Source: Bacteroidales bacterium
GTDB lineage: Bacteria; Bacteroidota; Bacteroidia; Bacteroidales; Marinilabiliaceae
Assembly (NCBI GenBank): GCA_024401365.1
Contig: JAKSLE010000009.1
Location: forward strand, 61,818-125,817
Direction of reading: 5' to 3'
Length of the DNA stretch: 64,000 bases
A model generated the notes under the pieces. That model was not told the origin of the DNA. It ran no database searches and saw only the letters and a program-made list of their open reading frames with translations. Both the position numbers and the translations under genes were made by a program. Below are positions 28,462 to 40,060 of this stretch, piece after piece. Numbering within the stretch: the first letter of the stretch is position 1; each line of letters opens with the position of its first letter.

Positions 28462-29529
28462 ATGCCGGTAAATAAGAATGCGATGACTCGTTATCAGGTA
28501 CTAGACGAGTTATTGTCGAACAGGTACCATGATTATACGATTGACGACATGACCAGTATAGTCAATGAGCGATTGAAAGAGATGGGTATTAGTCCTGTTA
28601 CTCGTCGTTGTATAGAGAAGGATATTCATTATCTAGAGTATGATGGGCCGTACATGGCTGAGATAGAGCGTAATGATATGCCGTATTACAATGCTGAGAA
28701 AGAGAAGACTGTAATAAGGAGATATTTGAAGTATTCCGATCCATCGTATTCGATATTCAAGAAAGAGATGTCGAGCGATGAGAAATACCTTCTATCGCAG
28801 GCATTAGACTTGCTAGGTCAATTTGACGGACTACCTACATTTGAGGCGTTGCAGCAATTCAAAGAAGGGTTGCGAGTAGGGGATCACAGGCAGATTGTGT
28901 CGTTCACCAAGAATCCGTTGGAGAACAGCAATCTGTTTGGCGAGTTGTTTATTGCCATTTCGCAAAAGCAAGTCATAAGAGTACATTATCATAAGTTTGG
29001 CGAAGAAGACGTTGATTTGACGGCAGACCTTCATCCCTATTTTCTAAAAGAATATAACAGGAGGTGGTATATTTTTGGGCAGTTGGTAGAAGAAGACATG
29101 ATGATATGCTTTGCGCTAGACAGGATGAACGGCTTTGATCCATTGCCCGGGAAGCAATACAAAGAATTTGAGGGCGATATAAACGACTGGTTTGAGGATA
29201 TCATAGGGGTAACGAGGTATCCGGGCAAGCCGGTAGAGCATATTGTGTTTTGGGTCAGTGACAAGTCGAAGAGTTATGTAGTCACGAAGCCGATACATGA
29301 GTCGCAGAAGATGTACAAGGGGGAGAAAGAAGCTGCGATGAGGAGTAGGTATCCGATGCTTGAGGGGGGAATGTTTTTTTCGATAGACTGTATGGAGAAT
29401 TATGAGTTGTACAGTGTGATGCTGTCGTTTGGTGCGGAGCTGGTGGTGCTGGAGCCGGTGGGGGTGAGAGATGAGTTGCGTAAGAGGGTAGAGAAGATGA
29501 TGGAGGTTTATGATGGAGTGCAAAGATAG
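28462..29529 (+). CDS. WYL-domain transcriptional regulator (HTH-WYL-WCX architecture)
   Basis: N-terminal MPVNKNAMTRYQVLDELL HTH-type start, central YNRRWYIFG WYL signature, 355 aa. Confidence 0.7.
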   Translation: MPVNKNAMTRYQVLDELLSNRYHDYTIDDMTSIVNERLKEMGISPVTRRCIEKDIHYLEYDGPYMAEIERNDMPYYNAEKEKTVIRRYLKYSDPSYSIFKKEMSSDEKYLLSQALDLLGQFDGLPTFEALQQFKEGLRVGDHRQIVSFTKNPLENSNLFGELFIAISQKQVIRVHYHKFGEEDVDLTADLHPYFLKEYNRRWYIFGQLVEEDMMICFALDRMNGFDPLPGKQYKEFEGDINDWFEDIIGVTRYPGKPVEHIVFWVSDKSKSYVVTKPIHESQKMYKGEKEAAMRSRYPMLEGGMFFSIDCMENYELYSVMLSFGAELVVLEPVGVRDELRKRVEKMMEVYDGVQR

Positions 29530-29573: not shown

Positions 29574-30290
29574 ATGGACAAATTTCAGAATACATATAGA
29601 ATACCATCAGCGCGTGCCGATTGGCATGGGTATGGTAAAGGCGTGTATTTCGTAACGATATGTACGCAGAATAGAGAACATTATTTTGGGGAAATTATGA
29701 GAGAATGTTATGGTGATGGTGTGAGATATAGGGGGATGCAAACGAAAATGACGGAACCGCAAATGCATTTGTCAGAAATCGGGCAATATGCCCAAGAACA
29801 ATTTATGAATGTTGAAGTACACTATCCGTATGCCAGAATACCATTGTTTGTTGTGATGCCAAATCATGTTCATGCGATTGTGATAATTGATGGAGATAAA
29901 TCCATTGAAAATGATATTCAAGAGTCGAATGGGCGTGCGAATGGAGACGGTGCGAGGCGTGGCGGTGTTGTGGGGTATGGAGACGTTGTGGGGTATGGAG
30001 ACGTTGTGGGGTATGGAGACGTTGCGCGCAACGTCTCTACAGTGAGGGATTGTCCATCGAAAAATTTGACAATGGCGGATATATCGCCTCAGAAAAAATC
30101 GTTGGCGGTGGTAATACGAGGTATAAAATCATCTATTACCAAATTTGCCAACCAAAACGATATACAATTTGCGTGGCAGTCGCGTTTTCATGACCGTATA
30201 GTGCGTGGTCGCTATGAATTGGAATGCATAGCGGACTATATAGAAAGCAACGTTGCCAATTGGCAAAACGATGATTTAAACAAATTGTAA
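29574..30290 (+). CDS. RAYT-like / IS200-family HUH (Y1) transposase
   Basis: HUH motif MPNHVHAIV and C-terminal catalytic-Tyr region RFHDRIVR...ADYIESNVANW. Confidence 0.7.
   Translation: MDKFQNTYRIPSARADWHGYGKGVYFVTICTQNREHYFGEIMRECYGDGVRYRGMQTKMTEPQMHLSEIGQYAQEQFMNVEVHYPYARIPLFVVMPNHVHAIVIIDGDKSIENDIQESNGRANGDGARRGGVVGYGDVVGYGDVVGYGDVARNVSTVRDCPSKNLTMADISPQKKSLAVVIRGIKSSITKFANQNDIQFAWQSRFHDRIVRGRYELECIADYIESNVANWQNDDLNKL
29967..30020 (+). repeat. Perfect 18-bp x3 tandem repeat inside the RAYT ORF
   Basis: GTTGTGGGGTATGGAGAC at 29967, 29985 and 30003; encodes (VVGYGD)x3. Confidence 0.9.
30016..30037. repeat. Perfect 22-bp palindrome GAGACGTTGCGCGCAACGTCTC
   Basis: Reverse complement verified by hand. 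Overlaps the last tandem unit. Confidence 0.9.
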
Positions 30291-30419
30291 ATTACTTATT
30301 AGATGGAGGTGATAAATGCGGACTGCTTTGGGGTATTGGAGAGGGGCTAGATATTATAGATGGGCTAGATGGTATTTTGGGGATGAAGGTTTATGGTGGG
30401 GTTAGTACGGAGCTAAGAG

Positions 30420-30508
30420 TTTTATGTGCCAGTTTGTATCTAATTTTGGGTACTTTTATGTGCCAATTTGTATCTAGTTTCTATTGATTTTATGTGCCAG
30501 TTTGTATA
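30420..30508 (+). repeat. Three direct repeats TTTTATGTGCCA(G/A)TTTGTAT(C)TA at an exact 34-bp period (iteron/operator-like)
   Basis: Copies start at 30420, 30454 and 30488. Confidence 0.85.
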
Positions 30509-30727
30509 GTATAAGAAAAACATATGTGGTGCGAAGATAGGGTTCGGAGAATGATTATATCTTTGTGATGTAAATATAAATATCGACACTTATGGTATAT
30601 CAATATTTTTATTGTCAAATGAATAAAATAGCCTTGAAGTGGAATGAAAAATTGAGTTAAATTGAAGAGATAATCAGTTTTCGGAGAGATTGTCTAATAA
30701 AAAAGGTATTATGTCGTTTATTCGTGT

Positions 30728-30735
30728 TACATTTG
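30728..30735 (+). promoter_or_regulatory. Candidate -7 box TACATTTG for the ssp-like operon, embedded in overlapping palindromes
   Basis: Matches TAnnTTTG, about 40 nt upstream of the first ORF. GTTACATTTGTAAC and ATTTGTAACAAAT palindromes lie at 30726-30743. Confidence 0.35.
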
Positions 30736-30777
30736 TAACAAATACAATATACATAACGAGTATATGCGTAATTGTTT

Positions 30778-31635
30778 ATGATACAGATAAATAGTACTAA
30801 ATATACATTCTCTGGACACGAGACTTTTCAGTGTAAGGGGCTATGGTTGAAGAAGGGATTTGATTTTGTAAAAGCCGAGAAATCTTTCAATGATGAATCT
30901 GCTGTTATTGAGTTAGGTGTGGGAAAGAATATGGTGTCCTCCATACGCTACTGGATGAAAGCGTTCTATATACTAGACTATGAGGGCAATATTACAGATA
31001 ATGGTGAATTTGTTTTTGGAGAAAAAGGGGTAGATCCTTTCCTGGAAGATGTAAACACACTGTGGTTATTGCATTATTGGCTAGTTTCTACTAGATATGC
31101 GACACTTTATTATGAGTTGTTCGCTAAGTATCACAAAGACAAACTAAACTTTACCAAGGAGAATGTCTTCAATTATATCAAACGCGAGTCGGATGATAAA
31201 AAGTTTAAGGGATTTTTGTTTAACGAAAACACTGTAAATAAAGATATAGCTACTCTATTGAAGATGTATGTAACTCCTGAAGGGAAAAATGTTGATGATT
31301 ACTCGGCACTTTTATTAGGGCTTAATCTCATAAAGAAAATTGAAAAGGATAAGTATGAGTTTAATACAAAGACAAGAGCAGATATTCATCCGCTAATTTT
31401 TTTGTACGCTATTATTGATGTTGCAGATGGAAGTCATGTGGTAGAGTACGACAGATTACTGTTTTTGTCTAGGGTTTTCTGTTTGACACAGTCAGAAATG
31501 ATTGATTTTTTTCAGAAGATTCATATGATATACCCTAATGTCAGCTATGATAATGCAGCTGGAGAGCAACTGTTTACTATTAACGAGGATTTGACTAAGT
31601 CTCAAGTCCTAGAGAAATATTACAGTCAGAAATAA
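30778..31635 (+). CDS. sspB: DUF4007-family protein, SspB-like (phosphorothioation nickase component)
   Basis: FSGHETFQCKGLWLKKGFDF N-terminal signature, about 285 aa, positioned before the ATPase and PAPS-reductase genes. The TTG at 30772 is an alternative start. Confidence 0.7.
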   Translation: MIQINSTKYTFSGHETFQCKGLWLKKGFDFVKAEKSFNDESAVIELGVGKNMVSSIRYWMKAFYILDYEGNITDNGEFVFGEKGVDPFLEDVNTLWLLHYWLVSTRYATLYYELFAKYHKDKLNFTKENVFNYIKRESDDKKFKGFLFNENTVNKDIATLLKMYVTPEGKNVDDYSALLLGLNLIKKIEKDKYEFNTKTRADIHPLIFLYAIIDVADGSHVVEYDRLLFLSRVFCLTQSEMIDFFQKIHMIYPNVSYDNAAGEQLFTINEDLTKSQVLEKYYSQK

Positions 31636-31640
31636 GTATT

Positions 31641-34600
31641 ATGAAGAAGTTTTCTACTTCCGTAAATATAGAACGAGATCAAAACAAGTCGCTTGATTAC
31701 ATTGTTACAGCCAATGCAAAACAGGCGATTGGGAAGATAGTCAATTCGTTCCAGGCAGGTATCCACTCATTCTGTCTTATTGGCTCTTATGGTACTGGTA
31801 AGTCTAGTTTCATAATAGCTCTTGAACAATGTTTGTCTGAGAAGAAGAGTAAGTCAAAGCAACTTATCAAGAATGAAGGTCAATTCAATGGGTTGACAGA
31901 TTTTGAATTTCTCAATATCGTAGGAGATTATTCTACGCTAGGGTCTTTACTGCAGGATAAACTTGATATTTCGTCTGAGAAGAATATTTTTTCAGCTTTA
32001 TCAAAGTTCTATGAGAAACTAGAAACGGCGAAAAAGTGCTTGGTAATTGTTGTTGATGAGTTCGGAAAAGTTTTGGAACATGCAGCTAAGAATGAGCCAG
32101 AAAAAGAAATGTACTTTTTACAGAAGTTCTGCGAGTTCGTGAACGATACGTCCAAGAATATACTCTTTATATCTACTCTACACCAAAGTTTCAATGCTTA
32201 TGCTAAAGATTTACAGCTAGAGCAAAAACAAGAATGGACAAAAGTCAAAGGTCGTATTCAAGATATAGTATTCAAGGAACCTGTTGAGCAATTGCTCAAT
32301 TTAGCGGCTAGCAAAATATCTGGGCAAAGTGACACCTGTATAAATACAGCAGAGAGCCTGTATGACCTTGCTCTATCAAAAAAGTTCGTATCACCTTCGT
32401 TGGATAAAAAGGTAGTAGCTTCATTGTATCCTATGGATGTATTGGCAGCTACGATACTAACTCTAGCCAACCAAAGATACGGACAGAATGAGCGAACTCT
32501 TTTCACTTTTCTAGAATCACAGGGAGAAGATTCGTTAAGTGATTTTATTGTTAATGGGAATAGACTATATAATATTGCAATAGTCCACGACTATATTACA
32601 TACAATTTCCACACTGTACTGAGCGAGGCTAATCAAGACTCTGCTAATTGGACAGCGATTCGTGTAGCTATTGAGCGAGTTGAAGGATTGAACTTACCTA
32701 CAGAGACTATCAACGTGGCAATAGCGTTAGTAAAGGTTATAGGACTTCTCAATATATTCGCAACCTCTTCTGCTAGTATTGATAATCAATTGCTGGACAC
32801 CTATGGTAAACTAGCGATGGATATTGACAATGTTAAGGAAGTGTTGAGACAGTTAGAGCAGTTCAAGATTGTAAGATTTGCGAAATATAAGAATAGATAT
32901 ATTCTCTTTGAAGGGACGGATATCAACATAGAGGAAGGTCTGTACAAAGCTTCTGTTGAATGTAAAAGGACTGAAGATATTGTCGACAAACTTAAGTCAA
33001 ACTTTAGCTTCAAACTTTCTTTAGCGAATGCTCATTACTACGAGACCGGAACTGCTCGTTTCTTCGAGTATAGCATATCCAGCACTCCTATTATAAAAAT
33101 AAACGTGGGAGAAATTGATGGATGTGTGAATCTTTTGTTCGCTCCCAAAGATGACTATGAAGCGGTCAAGACGCAATGTTTATCGCAGCACGATATCCCG
33201 GTTATATACTGCTTATTCAGGAATGTAGCTAAAGTTAGTGACCACATATTTGAGATGGATAAACTTGAATATGTACGAGACTATTATATAGCAGATGAGC
33301 ACGACAAAGTAGCAATGAGGGAGATTGAAAATCTTCTGAATTACGAGAAGACGCTGCTCAATAGAGAGGTGTATGATAGCCTATACACAAACAATGTAGA
33401 GTGGATTTTTAATGGGTTGATTATTGAAGGGATTAGTAGCGCTAAGTACTTTACTAAGTTTTTGTCAAAAGTTTGCAGTACAGTATATAGCAAGACTCCA
33501 ATATTCAAAAATGAGCTCATAAATAAGCATAAGCCGAGTGGTACAATTTCCTTCGCTAGACAGAACTATTTGCAAGCATTGCTGGATAATAGCGAAAAGG
33601 AAGACTTAGGGTTCGATAAGGATAAATTTCCTCCAGAGAAAGCAATATATCATACTCTTTTGAAGAACACAGGTATACATGCTATTGATGGTGCTTTATA
33701 TTCTCTCAATCCACCTACTGAGTCTTCTTTTAAGATTCTCTGGGATGCGTGTGAAGACTTTTTGATTTCGGCGAAAACAAGACAACGGAAAGTTGGAGAG
33801 TTGTATAAGATTCTCTCTGAACCTCCATATGGACTTAAACAGGGCTTGATAGATTGCTGGGTGCCATCATTCTTAGTTATTAGAAAGGATGATTTTGCAC
33901 TATATACTGGCAATCAATATGTACCTCAAATAAACAAAGAGGTTCTTGATTTATTGTTCAAGAACCCAAATGCCTTCTCCATCAAAACATTTGATGTGAC
34001 AGGTGTTAAGCAAAAGTTCTTTGACAAATATAGAGAAGCCATAAATCTCAAAGAAACGAGTTTGAATACAGATTCGTTTATTGAGACCATCAAACCTTTC
34101 TTGACTTTCTATCGTCAATTAAATGACTATGCAAAGACAACTAAGGATATTACTCCAAATGCAATTAAATTCCGTGACATAATATCAAAGGCAACTGACC
34201 CAGAAGAGACATTTTTTGAGACTCTTCCTGAGCAGCTAGGATTCAAGGAGGTTGTAATATCGCAGAATCCAGATGCTATAGATAGTTTCGTGTCAGTTTT
34301 GCACGATGCAATTAGAGATATCAGAAGTTGTTATGGAGAGTATTTGAAATATGTTGAGAAGAGTCTTCTTGAAATCCTTAGTATAGATTCTACAGACTAT
34401 GCAGAATACAAGCCTATCATTGACAAAAGATACAAGGCTGTTAAATCTGAGTATATGCCAGATGATATCAAGAATTTTTATTCTCGTCTTACAAGCAAAT
34501 TTGCGGATAAGAAAACTTGGCTGGAGTCGGTCTGCTTTGCCATATTAAAGAAGCCACTTGAAAAAATTAAGGATTCTGAAAAGGCTTACTTGCGCACAGC

Positions 34601-34847
34601 TATACAAGATAAGTTATATCAATTAGATGACTATGTAGAAATGCATAAGTCCTCTGAAGAAGAAATTGTGCGCTTGCATATTACACAGAACAATGCACAG
34701 CCGAAGACGAAACAAGTAGTCATTCCAAAGGCAAAACAGAAAGATGTAGAAAAACTAGCGAATAATATAGAAGAGTTATTGTCTAGTGATTCTTCTGTGA
34801 ATATAGCTGCTCTAATTAGATTGATAAATAAGTTTGATGGCAAATAA
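31641..34847 (+). CDS. sspC: Large P-loop ATPase, SspC-like
   Basis: Walker A GSYGTGKSS and Walker B LVIVVDEFGK; 1068 aa; operon position. Confidence 0.6.
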   Translation: MKKFSTSVNIERDQNKSLDYIVTANAKQAIGKIVNSFQAGIHSFCLIGSYGTGKSSFIIALEQCLSEKKSKSKQLIKNEGQFNGLTDFEFLNIVGDYSTLGSLLQDKLDISSEKNIFSALSKFYEKLETAKKCLVIVVDEFGKVLEHAAKNEPEKEMYFLQKFCEFVNDTSKNILFISTLHQSFNAYAKDLQLEQKQEWTKVKGRIQDIVFKEPVEQLLNLAASKISGQSDTCINTAESLYDLALSKKFVSPSLDKKVVASLYPMDVLAATILTLANQRYGQNERTLFTFLESQGEDSLSDFIVNGNRLYNIAIVHDYITYNFHTVLSEANQDSANWTAIRVAIERVEGLNLPTETINVAIALVKVIGLLNIFATSSASIDNQLLDTYGKLAMDIDNVKEVLRQLEQFKIVRFAKYKNRYILFEGTDINIEEGLYKASVECKRTEDIVDKLKSNFSFKLSLANAHYYETGTARFFEYSISSTPIIKINVGEIDGCVNLLFAPKDDYEAVKTQCLSQHDIPVIYCLFRNVAKVSDHIFEMDKLEYVRDYYIADEHDKVAMREIENLLNYEKTLLNREVYDSLYTNNVEWIFNGLIIEGISSAKYFTKFLSKVCSTVYSKTPIFKNELINKHKPSGTISFARQNYLQALLDNSEKEDLGFDKDKFPPEKAIYHTLLKNTGIHAIDGALYSLNPPTESSFKILWDACEDFLISAKTRQRKVGELYKILSEPPYGLKQGLIDCWVPSFLVIRKDDFALYTGNQYVPQINKEVLDLLFKNPNAFSIKTFDVTGVKQKFFDKYREAINLKETSLNTDSFIETIKPFLTFYRQLNDYAKTTKDITPNAIKFRDIISKATDPEETFFETLPEQLGFKEVVISQNPDAIDSFVSVLHDAIRDIRSCYGEYLKYVEKSLLEILSIDSTDYAEYKPIIDKRYKAVKSEYMPDDIKNFYSRLTSKFADKKTWLESVCFAILKKPLEKIKDSEKAYLRTAIQDKLYQLDDYVEMHKSSEEEIVRLHITQNNAQPKTKQVVIPKAKQKDVEKLANNIEELLSSDSSVNIAALIRLINKFDGK

Positions 34848-35946
34848 GATAAGACATTTACTAGGTATCTCAGGAGGCAAGGACAGCGCTGCCCTTGCTA
34901 TCTATCTCAAGGATAAATATCCAGACCTTGGGATAGAGTTCTATACTTGTGATACTAAATGCGAGTTGGCAGAAACAGAACAGCTTGTCAATAACCTGCG
35001 CTCTTATCTAGGCAACATAAAGACATTGTGCGCTGCACAAGGAAGTCCAGAGCCTACACCGTTTGACCATTTTTTGAAGATATATGGTGGTTACCTCCCC
35101 TCAGTACAATCTCGTTGGTGTACTAACAAGATGAAGTTATCAGAGTTTGAGAAATACGTAGGTGATGAACCTGTCATTTCATACGTAGGCATTAGAGGTG
35201 ATGAGGATAGAGAGGGATATGTATCGACAAAGCCTAATATACAGTCAATATTTCCTTTCAGAAAGAACATCTGGAGTATTGACGTGGTAAATGAAGTTCT
35301 CAAAGATGCTAGTATAGAAAAGTTCACAGAGTGCTATAGAGAAGTAGCTTCAGATGAGGATTTTGCAGAAGCAGAGAAGTTTTTGCAGGCAAAGCTTACA
35401 AAAACATTCTTCTATACCAAGAAGTTGAATTCTCTCCTTGATGTCAATGTAAAGACATTCAATCATGCGGTGTTCTCATATCTCAAGAAGTATACACAAC
35501 TACCTGTGAGCAAACTTGATGAATTTCCATTAGTAGATAATGATGAAATATTAGTCAAAGCAGATATTTTCCGAATTCTAGAAGAGTCCGGTGTAGGTGT
35601 TCCTGCGTACTATAATCTTATTGACTTTGAGGTAGATGGCAAAAAGGGGCAGTACTGTCGCAGCCGCTCTGGTTGCTATTTCTGCTTCTTTCAACAAAAG
35701 ATAGAGTGGATATGGCTATATGAGCAACATCCTGATCTCTTTGCTAAGGCAATGGAGTATGAGAAGGATGGCTATACATGGATAGAAAGTGAGCGTTTGG
35801 AAGACTTAATTCAACCAGAACGCATTCGCCAGATAAAGCTAGACCAAATTAAGAAAGCTGAAGATGCCGCAAAGAAGTCAAAGAGCACCTTGCTCATTGA
35901 TATGTTTGAGGATGATGATATTAACTGTGCTAATTGTTTTATATAA
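34837..35946 (+). CDS. sspD: PAPS-reductase/PP-loop ATP pyrophosphatase, SspD/DndC-like
   Basis: PP-loop LGISGGKDSAA and C-terminal Cys clusters CRSRSGCYFC and CANC. Overlaps the upstream gene by 11 nt. Confidence 0.75.
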   Translation: MANKIRHLLGISGGKDSAALAIYLKDKYPDLGIEFYTCDTKCELAETEQLVNNLRSYLGNIKTLCAAQGSPEPTPFDHFLKIYGGYLPSVQSRWCTNKMKLSEFEKYVGDEPVISYVGIRGDEDREGYVSTKPNIQSIFPFRKNIWSIDVVNEVLKDASIEKFTECYREVASDEDFAEAEKFLQAKLTKTFFYTKKLNSLLDVNVKTFNHAVFSYLKKYTQLPVSKLDEFPLVDNDEILVKADIFRILEESGVGVPAYYNLIDFEVDGKKGQYCRSRSGCYFCFFQQKIEWIWLYEQHPDLFAKAMEYEKDGYTWIESERLEDLIQPERIRQIKLDQIKKAEDAAKKSKSTLLIDMFEDDDINCANCFI

Positions 35947-36509
35947 TGACGGTACCTGCATTTCTTCAGTATGAGGCAGATAAGGACTATATAGTTCAAT
36001 TTTATCTTCCTTCTGGAAATTATAGGTTGCAAGATGGGACGTCGTATGTTTCCTATAATATACATAGCCCTATTTTAGAGGAAAGGCATTGGTCAAAGGA
36101 AATAAAATATATGAACCCGGAAAATACAGAAGTATCAAATGAAATTAAGCAGATTCCTAATAAATCTGGCGGGTTGTATGTTTTTTATCTCAAAGGCTCT
36201 GGCCTCCCTTTTATGGAAAGATATATTTTGTATATAGGTAGGGTGCAATATACAAAAGGTATGAACATTAGGAAGAGGGCTTTGGAATATTACAAAGAGT
36301 ATAAGAAAAATAAAAATTCTAGATTGGGAATAAGGTATATGTTTGAGCACTGGAGTAAGCATTTGTATTATAGATATTATACAGATGTTGACAATCCTAG
36401 TATTGTCGCTTTAGAAGAGTCATTAATAAAAACATTATTGCCTCCATTTAATACAGATATACCAAATAAACAGAAACCTAAAACAAATGTAGCGGCTTTT
36501 AAACTATGA
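35946..36509 (+). CDS. Small GIY-YIG-like putative nuclease
   Basis: GLYVFY...(17 aa)...YIGR...RKRALEYY...LEESLIKTLLPPFN gives the ordered GIY / YIG / R / E / N pattern. The start ATG shares one nt with the sspD stop (TAATG). Confidence 0.45.
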   Translation: MTVPAFLQYEADKDYIVQFYLPSGNYRLQDGTSYVSYNIHSPILEERHWSKEIKYMNPENTEVSNEIKQIPNKSGGLYVFYLKGSGLPFMERYILYIGRVQYTKGMNIRKRALEYYKEYKKNKNSRLGIRYMFEHWSKHLYYRYYTDVDNPSIVALEESLIKTLLPPFNTDIPNKQKPKTNVAAFKL

Positions 36510-37783
36510 CTAATAAATCCTTTATAGTTCCTGCAATGAAGGGGACTGTCGGAAATAATACATATTATGTTACAAATCTTACTTTTGAACAAATAAGTTC
36601 TCATGTTGGAAATGTAAATAAAGAGGTGTTTTCTCACGAGTCATTAAATGACCTTCTACAACGGTCGTTAACTAACAACTATTTAAGAATTAGAGATTAT
36701 ATACTTAACCAAGAAGAGCATTTTTTTAATGGGATAGTATTGGCCGTATATAATGATTATCCCCAATGGACAGAAATAGATCTTGAGATACACGGTAATG
36801 AATACCACAATGTTGGTTTATTGACGTTCGCGGGGGATGAAATAATATTCCCAGTGGATGGGCAACATAGGGTAAAAGGAATAAAGGCAGCTTTGGAGAA
36901 GAATCCTGATTTAAGTTCTGAAACCATAAGTGTGTTATTCATTGGGCACATTAATACAGTGGAAGGTAAAAAACGGACAAGGCGAATATTCTCTACGCTA
37001 AACCGATATGCTAAACCTGTTCAAAAAGGAGACATTATATGCTTAGATGAAGATGATGTAGTCGCAATAGCAACCCGTGAATTACTGGAGTCATACGAAT
37101 TGTTTTCAGGGTCGAAGATGAAAGCTAGTAATAGCAAATCTTTGCAGAAAAATGATTTTTCGTCATTTACTTCCTTAATTACTCTCTATGAAGTACATTT
37201 TGAACTTTTTAAAAGTTTCTTTTATCAAAAAAAAGGCAAACCTGTCAATGCGAGTTTTGTGAAAAAATACTTGAAACAAAGACCGGATGATGACATTACA
37301 AATGATTTCATTAATTATTTAAAAGTATTTTGGTCATACATGGTACAAGTATTTAGCTGCTTGAGTTTATATGAAATAGATACTAATGAAGATGCAGCAA
37401 AACCATATAGATCAAATACTACTGGTGGAAATTTATTGTTTAGACCGGCTGGATTATTGTCATTTGCAAAAGCAATTGTGAGAGTGCTGACGTGTAGTTC
37501 AAATAAATTGTCCTTGCAATGTTTGCTAGAAAAGGCTAATTCTATTCCTTTGGATCTGTCGCAACGTCCCTGGGTTAATATATTATGGAATCCTATAAAG
37601 TGTAGTATGATTACGACTAATAACAAGTTGGTAGAATCATTGTTCATATGGTTCTTAGCCTCCCCCGTTTTGTCTAAAAAAGAAATTGAAACGATGATAA
37701 AGGATTATGCTACTGTTTTTTCAATAAGGATTGAAGATGCTAAAACTCAAATAGAAGAATTTGCTAACCAAAATAGAGAATAA
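36506..37783 (+). CDS. DGQHR-domain protein (DndB-like)
   Basis: FPVDGQHRVKGI and FSTLNRYAKPV motifs. ATGA start/stop overlap with the upstream gene. Confidence 0.7.
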   Translation: MTNKSFIVPAMKGTVGNNTYYVTNLTFEQISSHVGNVNKEVFSHESLNDLLQRSLTNNYLRIRDYILNQEEHFFNGIVLAVYNDYPQWTEIDLEIHGNEYHNVGLLTFAGDEIIFPVDGQHRVKGIKAALEKNPDLSSETISVLFIGHINTVEGKKRTRRIFSTLNRYAKPVQKGDIICLDEDDVVAIATRELLESYELFSGSKMKASNSKSLQKNDFSSFTSLITLYEVHFELFKSFFYQKKGKPVNASFVKKYLKQRPDDDITNDFINYLKVFWSYMVQVFSCLSLYEIDTNEDAAKPYRSNTTGGNLLFRPAGLLSFAKAIVRVLTCSSNKLSLQCLLEKANSIPLDLSQRPWVNILWNPIKCSMITTNNKLVESLFIWFLASPVLSKKEIETMIKDYATVFSIRIEDAKTQIEEFANQNRE

Positions 37784-37786
37784 ATT

Positions 37787-40060
37787 ATGCTTAACGTAGA
37801 AACATCATTCCTTACAGAAAATCGCAGTGTGTACGATTTTCTTAACCAGCCTGGTCAGGGATTGTATATTCCTTTGTATCAGCGTGATTATAGTTGGGAT
37901 TCAGATAATATAGAGCAGTTGCTTGAGGATATATCTAGAGGTATACAGAGAATCGCCAATGGCGAAGTAACTGATGATAATAAGGAGATACGTTTCCTTG
38001 GAACGATTATTACTGTTATCGAAAATAATCGCCAGAATATATATCCTGTGGACCCGCAGGCTGTACCTTCTAAGATTGAAAAGATTATTGATGGACAACA
38101 GCGTGTTTCTACTATTACGTTAATGTCAACTATTCTTCTAAAACGATTGCTAGACATCAAAGCAAGAGTAAAGGAGAATAACCCTTTGCATAATGAAATA
38201 TGTGAGATTTGTGATATTTGGGATGCTAAGTTAAAACCTCTTTTCTGCTTTGACTTGCAGCGAGGAACGCCTAAATTAAAGCCAAAGGTAATACGAGGAG
38301 CCATTGATTATTGGACTCGAGATAGAGGTGTTGACGAAGCCTATAAGTCTCCATTGTCAAACTACTTGGGGAATTTCATTAAAGCATATTGTGATGGTAC
38401 GGCTCTTCCAATAGTACCCAAGCAGAGCGAGGGGAATAACTTGCTACATAAAAATGCCAAACAGATTAAAAACTGGCTTGAGAATGATGTAGCAAAAGCT
38501 CATATTAACGATAATGATGATAATTTCTCAAGAGCAGAAATGATTCTTGAACATCTATCTCAAGATATGATTTGGGAGTATGATAGGCCAGAGTTGGTGG
38601 ATATCATAAGACAAGCAGACTTTAGTTCAAATAAAAAAGATTCATATATTCTCAGTGAGCTAGTTCAGACAATTGCAGTTTGTCACTATCTCTTGGACCG
38701 TTGCTGTTTTACAATAATTCAACCAACGGATGACGATTGGGCATTCGATATGTTCCAGTCATTGAATGCGACTGGAACACCATTGACTGCTATAGAGACA
38801 TTTAAGCCTACTGTTGTTAATACAACAGATAATGAGCCCGGATACCAATTCAAGGATTCTGAGTGTGAGAAGTATTTCAAAAAAGTTGAGGATTTCTTAT
38901 CGAAGGCACCAAATGCTCAACAAAAGAATAAATGGACGAATGATTTCTTGACCTCTTTCTTTGTCGCATATGATGGTAGAACCATGTCTACTCATTTTAG
39001 CTATCAAAGGAAGGCTCTTGATGCGGCGTACAATGAGCTTCCTTCATTTGCCCAGAAAGAGCAGTTCGTTAAGACATTTGGCAACTATGCAGAATTCTAC
39101 TCTACGTGGATGAGCTATACAGGAGTTGATGGCGCACTGTTCCCTAGAATCGTTGGACTTGATGCTGATATCGCTTCGATGATTATTCTAATGCTCAAGG
39201 AGTCTAATCATAAGATGGCTATCACAGTACTAGGAAAGATGTATGAGCCTGTTATTAATGGCGAATTGCAAGCTGTTGATAGATTTGTGCACTCAGTCAA
39301 GTTGATAGGTTCTTATTTCTTCTTATGGAGGTCAGCTTGGCCCAATTCAGGATTGGATACTTCTTACCGTGAGTTTTTTAAATATCTAAAGAACAATGGC
39401 AAGTCAGTTGATATTTATGAAATTAAACGATTCATAAAGGAGTCTCTTGCTAAGAAAGGTATTACTGATTATGCTTCATGGAGATCTTTGGCATTATCAT
39501 ATTTGAGATATGCTAATGCGAATAATACTATTGTTCGTTTGGCTTTGTTAGCAGCAGCTCATGATACACAACCAGACAATGGTTCAATAAAAGAGGGTAG
39601 AGACGGCATATCTCCATATTTGACACTTGAGAAATGGATATCCCCAGATCTAAGAACTATAGAGCATATTTCGCCGCAGTCCAATGTTAATGACAAGTGG
39701 GATACATCGTTATATACAGATGCCAAAGAGTATCAAACGCTCGGTAATCTCACGCTTTTGCCACAGGATATTAATTCGTCCGCTGGCAATCGCGGATGGG
39801 AAGAAAAACAGTTATACTATGAGTGTGTTTCTCAGACAGATTCTTTAGTTATTGATAGTATTAGAAATAGAGCTTTGGCAAAGGGGTTCTCTCTTAATGA
39901 ACAAACACTTGAGTTACTAAAGAATTGTCGGTACAATAAGCACATAGATTCCATTGCGAAGAAACCTGATTCAATAGCGTGGGATTCGGCTCTTGTGAGC
40001 AGAAGAACAGAAGACATTCTGTCTATAGCATGGAAGCGTCTTTCTTTTGCTTTGGACTAG
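37787..40060 (+). CDS. DUF262 (N-terminal) + DUF1524/HNH-like (C-terminal) protein, SspE-like effector
   Basis: LYQRDYSW, IIDGQQRVSTITL and FQSLNATGTPLT (DUF262); TIEHISPQS...LGNLTLLPQDINSSAGN (DUF1524). Confidence 0.75.
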   Translation: MLNVETSFLTENRSVYDFLNQPGQGLYIPLYQRDYSWDSDNIEQLLEDISRGIQRIANGEVTDDNKEIRFLGTIITVIENNRQNIYPVDPQAVPSKIEKIIDGQQRVSTITLMSTILLKRLLDIKARVKENNPLHNEICEICDIWDAKLKPLFCFDLQRGTPKLKPKVIRGAIDYWTRDRGVDEAYKSPLSNYLGNFIKAYCDGTALPIVPKQSEGNNLLHKNAKQIKNWLENDVAKAHINDNDDNFSRAEMILEHLSQDMIWEYDRPELVDIIRQADFSSNKKDSYILSELVQTIAVCHYLLDRCCFTIIQPTDDDWAFDMFQSLNATGTPLTAIETFKPTVVNTTDNEPGYQFKDSECEKYFKKVEDFLSKAPNAQQKNKWTNDFLTSFFVAYDGRTMSTHFSYQRKALDAAYNELPSFAQKEQFVKTFGNYAEFYSTWMSYTGVDGALFPRIVGLDADIASMIILMLKESNHKMAITVLGKMYEPVINGELQAVDRFVHSVKLIGSYFFLWRSAWPNSGLDTSYREFFKYLKNNGKSVDIYEIKRFIKESLAKKGITDYASWRSLALSYLRYANANNTIVRLALLAAAHDTQPDNGSIKEGRDGISPYLTLEKWISPDLRTIEHISPQSNVNDKWDTSLYTDAKEYQTLGNLTLLPQDINSSAGNRGWEEKQLYYECVSQTDSLVIDSIRNRALAKGFSLNEQTLELLKNCRYNKHIDSIAKKPDSIAWDSALVSRRTEDILSIAWKRLSFALD

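Follow-up and report, generated by a model that had tools for sequence, protein, structure and literature searches.

A two-gene cassette of a GIY-YIG-family gene and a DndB-like gene that accompanies DNA phosphorothioate systems, examined from a Bacteroidales ssp operon

What do two unplaced genes contribute when they are wedged between a DNA phosphorothioate (PT) writer and the gene of the PT-sensing nickase SspE? We met this question in a 64,000-nucleotide stretch of DNA (the window) from a Bacteroidales bacterium of the Marinilabiliaceae (assembly GCA_024401365.1, contig JAKSLE010000009.1, positions 61,818 to 125,817, forward strand). In one packed plus-strand operon, the gene order is sspB-sspC-sspD-[187 aa]-[425 aa DGQHR]-sspE. 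A first-pass annotation, made from the letters of the window, had described the two middle genes as a GIY-YIG-like and a DGQHR gene, and had proposed that they work with SspE as one sensor/regulator with two nucleases. Here, we report that the two genes constitute one autonomous cassette, which is an optional add-on to PT systems and follows such systems irrespective of the type of writer or effector.

The gene pair in the window

The two genes of the cassette are as follows.

35946-36509, + strand: cassette gene 1, encoding a 187-aa protein of the GIY-YIG (URI) family (assigned by open reading frame (ORF), family profile and predicted fold)
36506-37783, + strand: cassette gene 2, encoding a 425-aa DGQHR-domain protein (DndB family, ParB/Srx fold; assigned by Pfam, NCBIfam and PADLOC)

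The stop codon of sspD, TAA (35944-35946), shares one nucleotide with the ATG of the 187-aa ORF (35946-35948), giving TAATG. The TGA of the 187-aa ORF (36507-36509) in turn overlaps the ATG of the 425-aa ORF (36506-36508), giving ATGA, and both overlaps read just as first annotated. The 425-aa ORF ends at 37783, and a 3-nt gap separates it from the start of the sspE-like ORF at 37787. For the small gene, the ATG at 35946 is preferred over the TTG at 35934, which the ORF lister had picked, because the starts of the homologues align at the former.

The pair as one cassette

The pair was surveyed in one genome per species of 185,579 GTDB species, using an alignment of the DndB-like protein as the query. 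About 256 relatives, spread over several phyla, were found in this species scan, and the best 80 loci were retained. The ORFs of these loci were then searched with a hidden Markov model of the small family and with the proteins of the window and of its neighbours. Individual loci are cited below by number, with positions in the locus after a colon.

The small gene lies immediately 5′ of the DndB-like gene at 79 of the 80 loci, the exception being truncated where its contig ends. Between the stop of the small gene and the start of its partner lie −4 to +13 nt in 83/84 pairs, so that the tight coupling which had been read from the window is a conserved property. The two proteins also co-evolve: their pairwise identities correlate with r=0.85, similar to the 0.88 for SspC against SspD, whereas the correlation of either cassette protein with SspC or SspD is lower (0.51-0.59). 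At the 28 loci carrying all three modules, i.e., the pair, the writer and the Pbe-like module described below, the within-module r is 0.89-0.91 and the cross-module r is 0.60-0.84, with similar cross-module correlations of the pair with the writer and with the Pbe-like module. The adjacency, the coupling and the higher within-module correlation thus indicate that the pair is a module of its own.

The small protein: a predicted GIY-YIG nuclease

The motifs of the small protein are located as follows.

36171-36179, + strand: GIY motif, G76-L77-Y78 (from sequence; Y78 invariant in 109 members and kept in 83/84 locus copies)
36231-36239, + strand: YIG motif, Y96-I97-G98 (from sequence; Y96 and G98 invariant, placed on the UvrC YxG by profile alignment)
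36276-36278, + strand: predicted catalytic R111 (83/84 copies; aligned to the conserved Arg of the UvrC GIY-YIG domain)
36414-36416, + strand: predicted metal-binding E157 (invariant in 109 members, 82/84 locus copies; the UvrC Glu, 'lE..Li' motif)
36450-36452, + strand: conserved N169 of the PPxN motif (81/84 locus copies)

The protein further contains RKRALEYY (109-116), LEESLI (156-161) and PPFN (166-169), and every motif that the first-pass annotation had listed for this protein and its partner lies at its stated place. Across an alignment of 109 members, Y78, Y96, G98 and E157 are invariant, while conservation is 90% or more at G76, F80, R111, Y115, R126, L160, P166 and N169. Judged from the alignment, these residues correspond to the GIY/YxG/Arg/Glu/Asn set of the GIY-YIG superfamily. 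The catalytic columns (Y78, Y96, G98, R111, E157 and N169) are retained in 81-84 of 84 locus copies, suggesting that selection acts on catalysis. A copy on the Roseobacter litoralis plasmid pROLI83 (L091:8456-8986) has Ser in place of the PPxN Asn and retains the other catalytic residues.

Taken alone, the window protein matched no Pfam or PADLOC model, and its match to the UvrC N-terminus in NCBIfam was weak (E=0.012, residues 66-170). The identical protein on record is a hypothetical protein of a Bacteroidales metagenome-assembled genome (MAG), and a word-indexed homologue search returned one relative. When 1.84 billion representatives were searched exhaustively with phmmer, 173 clusters were obtained at E<=1e-3, 61 of them at E<=1e-10, with nearly all of these relatives being 100-216 aa long. 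A profile of this family, run against the PDB sequences, retrieved the GIY-YIG domain of UvrC (1yd6, E=2e-5; 1ycz, E=1e-3) and, lower in the list, T4 EndoII and R.Eco29kI. Individual members match Pfam GIY_YIG_2 (62/109) and GIY-YIG (33/109). The AlphaFold2 model of the window protein (pLDDT 88.1, pTM 0.83) shows a beta-beta-alpha-alpha-beta-alpha core at residues 75-164. Using this model, a Foldseek search of the PDB gave R.Eco29kI as the sole credible match (prob 0.98, E=0.08), and one of BFVD gave a long series of phage GIY-YIG endonucleases (best E=4.5e-4, prob 1.0). Four independent lines, i.e., the family profile, the Pfam matches of members, the AlphaFold2 model and Foldseek, thus agree that the 187-aa protein is a predicted GIY-YIG-fold nuclease with an intact predicted catalytic set. 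The first-pass annotation had suspected this fold and had suggested a structural search and a co-occurrence survey as checks, and both bear it out, clearly giving GIY-YIG similarity and conserved homologues in comparable loci.

It had also remarked on the long GIY-to-YIG spacer, and rightly so: 17 residues separate Y78 and Y96 rather than the usual ~10-11, and the long spacer is common to the whole family. In the AlphaFold2 model, strands 75-83 and 92-100 form a beta-hairpin of greater length around this spacer, suggesting an extended hairpin and not a loss of the fold. The N-terminal ~70 residues form a family-specific extension of lower model confidence, and no recognisable DNA-binding domain was found in the 187-aa protein.

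A skeptical reader may ask whether the small gene is a selfish insertion resembling a homing endonuclease, or a spurious ORF. Homing endonucleases often carry GIY-YIG domains, and the RefSeq label of the small gene on plasmids is 'hypothetical protein', both in favour of such a reading. However, the obligate pairing, the conserved overlap, the co-evolution and the 173 clusters all speak against it, and a scan of 2.9 million viral contigs contained no relative. The number of homologue clusters and the (near-)invariant motif residues show that the ORF has not arisen by chance. The comparative data thus rule out a homing endonuclease or a chance ORF, and we give this explanation a probability close to nil.

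The partner: a DGQHR-domain protein of the DndB family

The larger protein scores 99.3 bits against Pfam DndB (PF14072; 3e-28, cut-off 29.1) and 105.8 bits against the NCBIfam DGQHR domain TIGR03187, above the cut-off of 58.85. Its score against the NCBIfam DndB equivalog TIGR03233 is 65.2 bits, far below the cut-off of 328, and PADLOC DndB is matched at 3.8e-20. A homologue search with this protein returned 1812 homologues. VDGQHR lies at residues 117-122 and FSTLNRYAKPV at 162-172. The three signature motifs of the DGQHR domain (QR, DGQHR and FxxxN, as defined in PMC4619093) correspond to Q52-R53, D118-G-Q-H-R122 and F162xxxN166, and all three are invariant in 46 homologues. The central motif is located as follows.

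36857-36871, + strand: DGQHR motif, D118-R122, the nucleoside triphosphate (NTP)-binding signature of the family (from sequence; invariant in 46 homologues)

On these profile scores and motifs, the 425-aa protein is best assigned as a DGQHR-domain member of the DndB family and not as a DndB equivalog, in keeping with the DndB/DGQHR pattern that had been recognised at first. Its AlphaFold2 model (pLDDT 83.8) consists of an N-terminal alpha/beta domain and an alpha-helical C-terminal half. No solved structure related by sequence to the DndB-like family was found among the PDB sequences, and the sole Foldseek match of the model was a weak one to ParB-N (E=0.19).

Writers and effectors around the cassette

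Within 10 kb of the pair, the writer is Ssp at 66 of the 80 loci and BREX type 4 at 9, while none is visible at 5, mostly on short contigs. A close homologue of the small protein, the first to be met (45% identity), belongs to a BREX type 4 locus with the order BrxP, a stand-alone sulfur-binding-domain gene, BrxC, PglZ, BrxL, [174 aa], [DndB-like 421 aa]. Among the core genes of the pair-bearing BREX type 4 loci, no other classical nuclease-fold gene was recognised. In a Prevotellaceae locus, a four-gene module comes after the order HTH-sspB-sspC-sspD-[181 aa]-[417 aa]. In a more remote clade (small protein 27% identical; partner 35%, E=4e-73), the pair closes a Dnd-type operon, in which DndC, DndD and a DndE fused to a HerA/FtsK-like ATPase precede the pair. 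The loci of this Dnd variant are L089:1969-9033, L090:1387-8026 and L087/L088:4925-10531, and the fusion is 495-528 aa long. The pair stands straight after sspD in 30 of 82 tallied pairs. At 31/80 loci it is part of an effector operon on the strand opposite (convergent) to sspBCD, and at some others it is on the same strand.

The effectors are just as varied. A Pbe-like four-gene module adjoins the pair at 40/80 loci (PADLOC PbeA E=0, PbeC 2e-20). It encodes an SF2 helicase of 756 aa, a 77-aa protein, an ABC/SMC ATPase of 724 aa and a 191-aa protein (L002:11257-16520 and 39 further loci). PbeABCD has been described in the literature as an archaeal partner of the Dnd writer, and the combination of Ssp with Pbe seems common in Bacteroidota. 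SspFGH lies beside the pair in Bacillus mesophilum, a Jettenia MAG and a Rhizobium Ti plasmid (L081 and L021 among these loci). The pair itself was also considered as SspFGH, and this identity was rejected since neither protein matches PADLOC SspF, SspG or SspH. SspE accompanies the pair at 3/80 loci in addition to the window; at two of the three, sspE precedes the pair, and the adjacent order of the window is found in L024.

Near the pair at 22/80 loci is an unannotated protein of ~820 aa (c0), whose gene lies directly 5′ of the pair on the same strand at 19 loci (at a distance of 1-53 nt in 18/19) and nearby at 3 more. This protein has a weak match to HATPase_c_3 (GHKL ATPase) at residues ~125-190 and no PADLOC or NCBIfam match. 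It may be an undescribed PT-linked effector forming a three-gene operon with the pair. It was noted at ~7-9.4 kb in each of L019, L031-L035, L038, L040, L046, L048 (6959-9433), L052, L053, L058, L067, L069-L071, L076, L083 and L084.

With so many effector types and SspE so rare among them, the cassette is not an SspE-specific part. This bears directly on the model of the first-pass annotation, in which the pair and SspE form one integrated sensor/regulator with two nucleases. The constituents of that model are all present: genes for two ParB-fold proteins (SspE, with DGQQR in its GmrSD_N domain, and the DGQHR protein; both ParB-fold according to PMC4619093) stand in the locus, as do genes for two predicted nucleases of different folds (GIY-YIG and the HNH-like GmrSD_C of SspE), and the adjacency, the tight spacing and the single operon in the window and in L024 would suit such a machine. 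However, SspE occurs at few loci, the order differs at two of these, and four other effector types take its place elsewhere. Moreover, SspE is reported to work alone with SspABCD (PMC9646914, PMC8092258). We thus abandon the integrated model as very unlikely.

The neighbouring effectors also bring to mind a backup suicide effector, which would normally be silent and would degrade the DNA of the cell without discrimination when a phage inhibits the PT system or when the ParB-fold subunit senses phage-made nucleotides, a form of abortive infection. Such a role has been proposed for URI nucleases at the borders of Dnd neighbourhoods (section 17 of PMC10853773), and the pair does lie nearly always beside another effector module. 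The gene is not a stand-alone border nuclease, however: it is strictly coupled to the DndB-like gene and is often in the middle of an operon, examples being the window and the loci of the order sspBCD-pair-Pbe. The pair is, moreover, closely confined to PT systems, which favours an input specific to PT over a general alarm signal, and we regard a suicide role as improbable.

Several other genes recur at these loci. The stand-alone gene between brxP and brxC (~145 aa; L001:2269-2706) has a weak match to the sulfur-binding domain of ScoMcrA and is also found in the BREX type 4 loci L012, L033, L043, L044, L055, L064 and L074; a free-standing PT reader within BREX type 4 is possible. A class-V aminotransferase gene (c1) lies beside the effector module or the pair at ~20 surveyed loci. 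Two genes separate the pair from sspD at 7-9 loci, one of ~130 aa that resembles a nucleoside 2-deoxyribosyltransferase and an unassigned one of ~232 aa (e.g., L031:11336-11746 and L059:10087-10818, with 7 further loci).

A possible mechanism and its rivals

What may such a cassette do? Our preferred reading, to which we give slightly less than even weight, is that it could be a two-subunit machine resembling SspE and DndI, in which a ParB-fold NTP switch gates a GIY-YIG nickase. The two proteins would form a complex, whose DndB-like subunit would bind DNA together with ATP or GTP and read the PT status of the DNA. NTP binding and hydrolysis would then gate the GIY-YIG subunit, which would nick DNA without the host PT pattern. 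The logic of SspE and DndI would be rebuilt in trans, with a different nuclease fold, and in the window SspE would be joined by the cassette as a second, parallel effector and would not have it as a component. The complex formation, the PT sensing, the nicking activity and the role in defence are what we infer for the pair.

Several published observations provide precedents. SspE and DndI each combine a ParB-fold NTPase with an HNH nickase, the NTPase being stimulated by PT-DNA (PMC9646914, PMC11662687). DndB possesses the ParB domain and the downstream helical domain of SspE/GmrSD, without the nuclease (PMC12065111). GmrS and GmrD also exist as split proteins (PMC4619093), and a DndB-like protein binds both ATP and GTP (PMC12704722).

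We note, however, four sets of observations that weigh against an SspE/DndI-like machine. First, those proteins of the DGQHR family that have been characterised all serve the writer: DndB holds down the PT level as a negative regulator (PMC4507180), and the ATPase DpdB assists the insertion of a modified base (PMC12839542, citing earlier work). Second, the pair is almost never the sole candidate effector in Ssp loci, whereas SspE often is. This objection is weakened by the precedent of dndI, which is co-transcribed with the large DndFGH module (PMC11662687); SspE and SspFGH act additively (PMC8092258). Third, Foldseek with the DndB-like model retrieved neither SspE nor DndI, and an hhalign comparison of the DndB-like family profile with the SspE of the window was not significant; given the weak ParB-N match and the lack of a sequence relative in the PDB, there is no structural argument for or against SspE-likeness. 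Fourth, no fusion of GIY-YIG and DndB was found among the listed homologues, the relatives of the small protein being all <=216 aa.

The first of these points leads to a writer-side governor of the PT level, which we consider possible but clearly less probable. The DndB-like protein would limit or pattern PT through repression of the operon or competition for target sites, and the GIY-YIG protein would process DNA. In Salmonella, DndB lowers the PT level (PMC4507180). It is also an optional component, in about half of Dnd systems (PMC10853773), and in this it resembles the cassette. The frequent position of the pair straight after sspD, or after dndC-D-E in the Dnd variant, would suit a governor, as would its occurrence with every writer type, its indifference to the effector type and its rarity as the lone candidate effector of an Ssp locus. 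Among solved structures, the nearest relative of the nuclease by sequence is the 3′-incision domain of UvrC, which is also in line with DNA processing. However, canonical DndB lacks a nuclease and heads its operon, whereas the pair lies 3′ of the writer or, as at the 31 convergent loci, on the opposite strand. Dedicated regulators are already encoded 5′ of the writer: the window has the WYL protein, and L002-L004 and L014 have an HTH_3 protein. The 425-aa protein also falls short of the DndB equivalog threshold (65 vs. 328 bits), and the strict conservation of the catalytic residues likewise argues against a governor.

A variant of the governor would be an 'editor' or 'eraser' of PT, in which the DndB-like reader would direct a UvrC-like GIY-YIG incision next to aberrant PT, i.e., beside excess, misplaced or oxidised PT, for repair. 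The UvrC relationship would fit here as well. However, we know of no system with a PT-removal activity, and an editor seems rather unlikely to us. If true, DNA backbone modification would have its first dedicated enzymatic 'eraser' or repair system, and the editor could explain partial, dynamic PT occupancy.

The pair may alternatively assist the writer as a nickase, with the GIY-YIG protein supplying the strand break or access for sulfur insertion, and the DndB-like ATPase delivering as DpdB does for DpdA. This is modelled on DpdB, a DGQHR-family ATPase that helps to insert a modification (PMC12839542), and a sulfurtransferase gene does adjoin the pair at many loci. However, ~256 relatives in a scan of 185,579 species genomes suggest that the majority of Ssp, BREX type 4 and Dnd writers are probably without the pair, and both SspBCD and BrxPCZL write PT without it in the strains tested (PMC12914056, PMC8092258). 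Such a role is thus hardly probable.

Comparison with known systems

While similar to several characterised systems, the cassette differs from each of them. Canonical DndB (dndBCDE of Salmonella enterica and Streptomyces lividans) shares PF14072, the QR/DGQHR/FxxxN motifs, the link to a writer and the optional occurrence with the cassette protein. However, the cassette protein is encoded 3′ of the writer or in an effector operon and not at the operon head, it is invariably accompanied, unlike canonical DndB, by a dedicated GIY-YIG protein, and it occurs mainly with Ssp and BREX type 4 writers.

SspE, DndI and the wider GmrSD/BrxU group resemble the pair in combining a ParB/Srx-fold NTPase with DGQxR, a helical middle domain and a nuclease. 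Like the pair, SspE and DndI stand beside PT writers and may adjoin a larger restriction module (dndI with dndFGH). They differ in that the putative nuclease of the pair is a separate chain encoded upstream and belongs to GIY-YIG instead of DUF1524/HNH, and in that the NTPase of the pair belongs to the DGQHR/DndB branch instead of DUF262. The pair does not combine DUF262 (DGQQR) with DUF1524/HNH in one chain, and the true SspE is its neighbour at 37787-40060. Split GmrS and GmrD resemble the pair as a ParB-fold NTPase and a nuclease encoded by two adjacent genes. Nevertheless, the nuclease fold and the gene order differ, and GmrSD is directed against modified phage DNA, with no tie to PT writers.

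The small protein shares the catalytic fold and the Tyr, Tyr-x-Gly, Arg, Glu and Asn residues with the N-terminal domain of UvrC, R.Eco29kI and phage GIY-YIG endonucleases. Compared with these proteins, it has a 17-residue hairpin spacer (~10 there) and a unique N-terminal extension of ~70 aa, and it falls below the Pfam thresholds. The URI nucleases at the borders of Dnd neighbourhoods (PMC10853773) are likewise GIY-YIG/URI proteins near PT writers, but neither a strict pairing with a DndB-like gene nor an occurrence in Ssp or BREX type 4 loci was found in the available portion of that source. DpdB of the Dpd 7-deazaguanine system, like the 425-aa protein, is a DGQHR-family ParB-like ATPase accompanying a DNA-modification enzyme. 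Its equivalog model, however, gives 17.7 bits against a cut-off of 300 (scored on the related protein of L090), and DpdB has no nuclease partner and serves a different modification chemistry.

Novelty and implications

A pairing of GIY-YIG and DndB-like genes was not found described in the open-access literature and bioRxiv. The nearest published statement is one sentence on URI nucleases at the borders of Dnd neighbourhoods (PMC10853773). No GIY-YIG/URI nuclease is named in the recent surveys of BREX type 4 and gut-microbiome PT systems, and these do not link DndB to BREX type 4 or Ssp loci either. The small family is absent from Pfam, NCBIfam and PADLOC 2.0. A gene labelled 'hypothetical' and absent from these libraries is thus missed by current defence-system finders.

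The role of the DndB family is debated, its members being viewed as transcriptional repressors, NTPases, nucleases or nucleotide-depleting effectors. Partial, heterogeneous site occupancy and the way in which cells avoid cutting themselves are open matters in PT biology. We find one large branch of the DndB family that is obligately coupled to a putative nuclease, with an apparently intact catalytic set, across three unrelated writer architectures, a pairing which suggests a function of the DndB family that requires a nuclease. As an effector, the cassette would be a PT-dependent restriction module of new architecture, and some BREX type 4 loci would have in it their sole classical nuclease. 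As a governor or editor, it would add a new control layer for DNA backbone modification. E157 and R111 of the predicted nuclease and R122 of the predicted switch are mutable handles on the function of the cassette.

The ssp operon and its surroundings in the window

The other genes of the operon and its regulator are located as follows.

28462-29529, + strand: WYL + WCX domain regulator (Pfam WYL 3.7e-10, WCX 1.4e-8; PADLOC WYL 7.7e-23)
30772-31635, + strand: sspB, DUF4007, PT writer (Pfam DUF4007 2.4e-73; PADLOC SspB 4.3e-83)
31641-34847, + strand: sspC, ATPase, PT writer (PADLOC SspC E=0, 1173 bits)
34834-35946, + strand: sspD, PAPS-reductase-type sulfurtransferase, PT writer (PADLOC SspD 4.4e-86)
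37787-40060, + strand: sspE, PT-sensing nickase; GmrSD_N/DUF262 with DGQQR and GmrSD_C/DUF1524 (PADLOC SspE 7.4e-277; Pfam GmrSD_N 7e-27, GmrSD_C 9e-11)

PADLOC thus places SspB, SspC and SspD genes in one operon, i.e., an Ssp writer. The Pfam/PADLOC scan found no DndD or DndE in the window, and the cassette comes after sspBCD. Within the ssp operon (30772-40060) no sspA (cysteine desulfurase) was found, and the Ssp system of the window presumably uses a housekeeping IscS-type enzyme in this role.

The ssp island (~30-40 kb) has a guanine-plus-cytosine content of 33-39%, compared with 40-49% in its flanks, where a beta-galactosidase-like gene and a protease gene represent housekeeping functions, and the pair is lowest at 33%. 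This low content of the island (30000-40000) is consistent with horizontal acquisition. A scan of the operon for sigma-70 promoters and terminators gave a count only ~2 standard deviations above shuffled sequences and says little for a Bacteroidales MAG, which uses a different promoter type.

WYL-type regulators are frequent at the head of defence islands. The WYL + WCX gene sits ~1.2 kb 5′ of sspB, and its product may control the ssp operon. Between this gene and sspB lies a 238-aa ORF (29574-30290), which has a weak match to an IS200-like Y1 transposase and contains an internal peptide repeat, with VVGYGD occurring three times.

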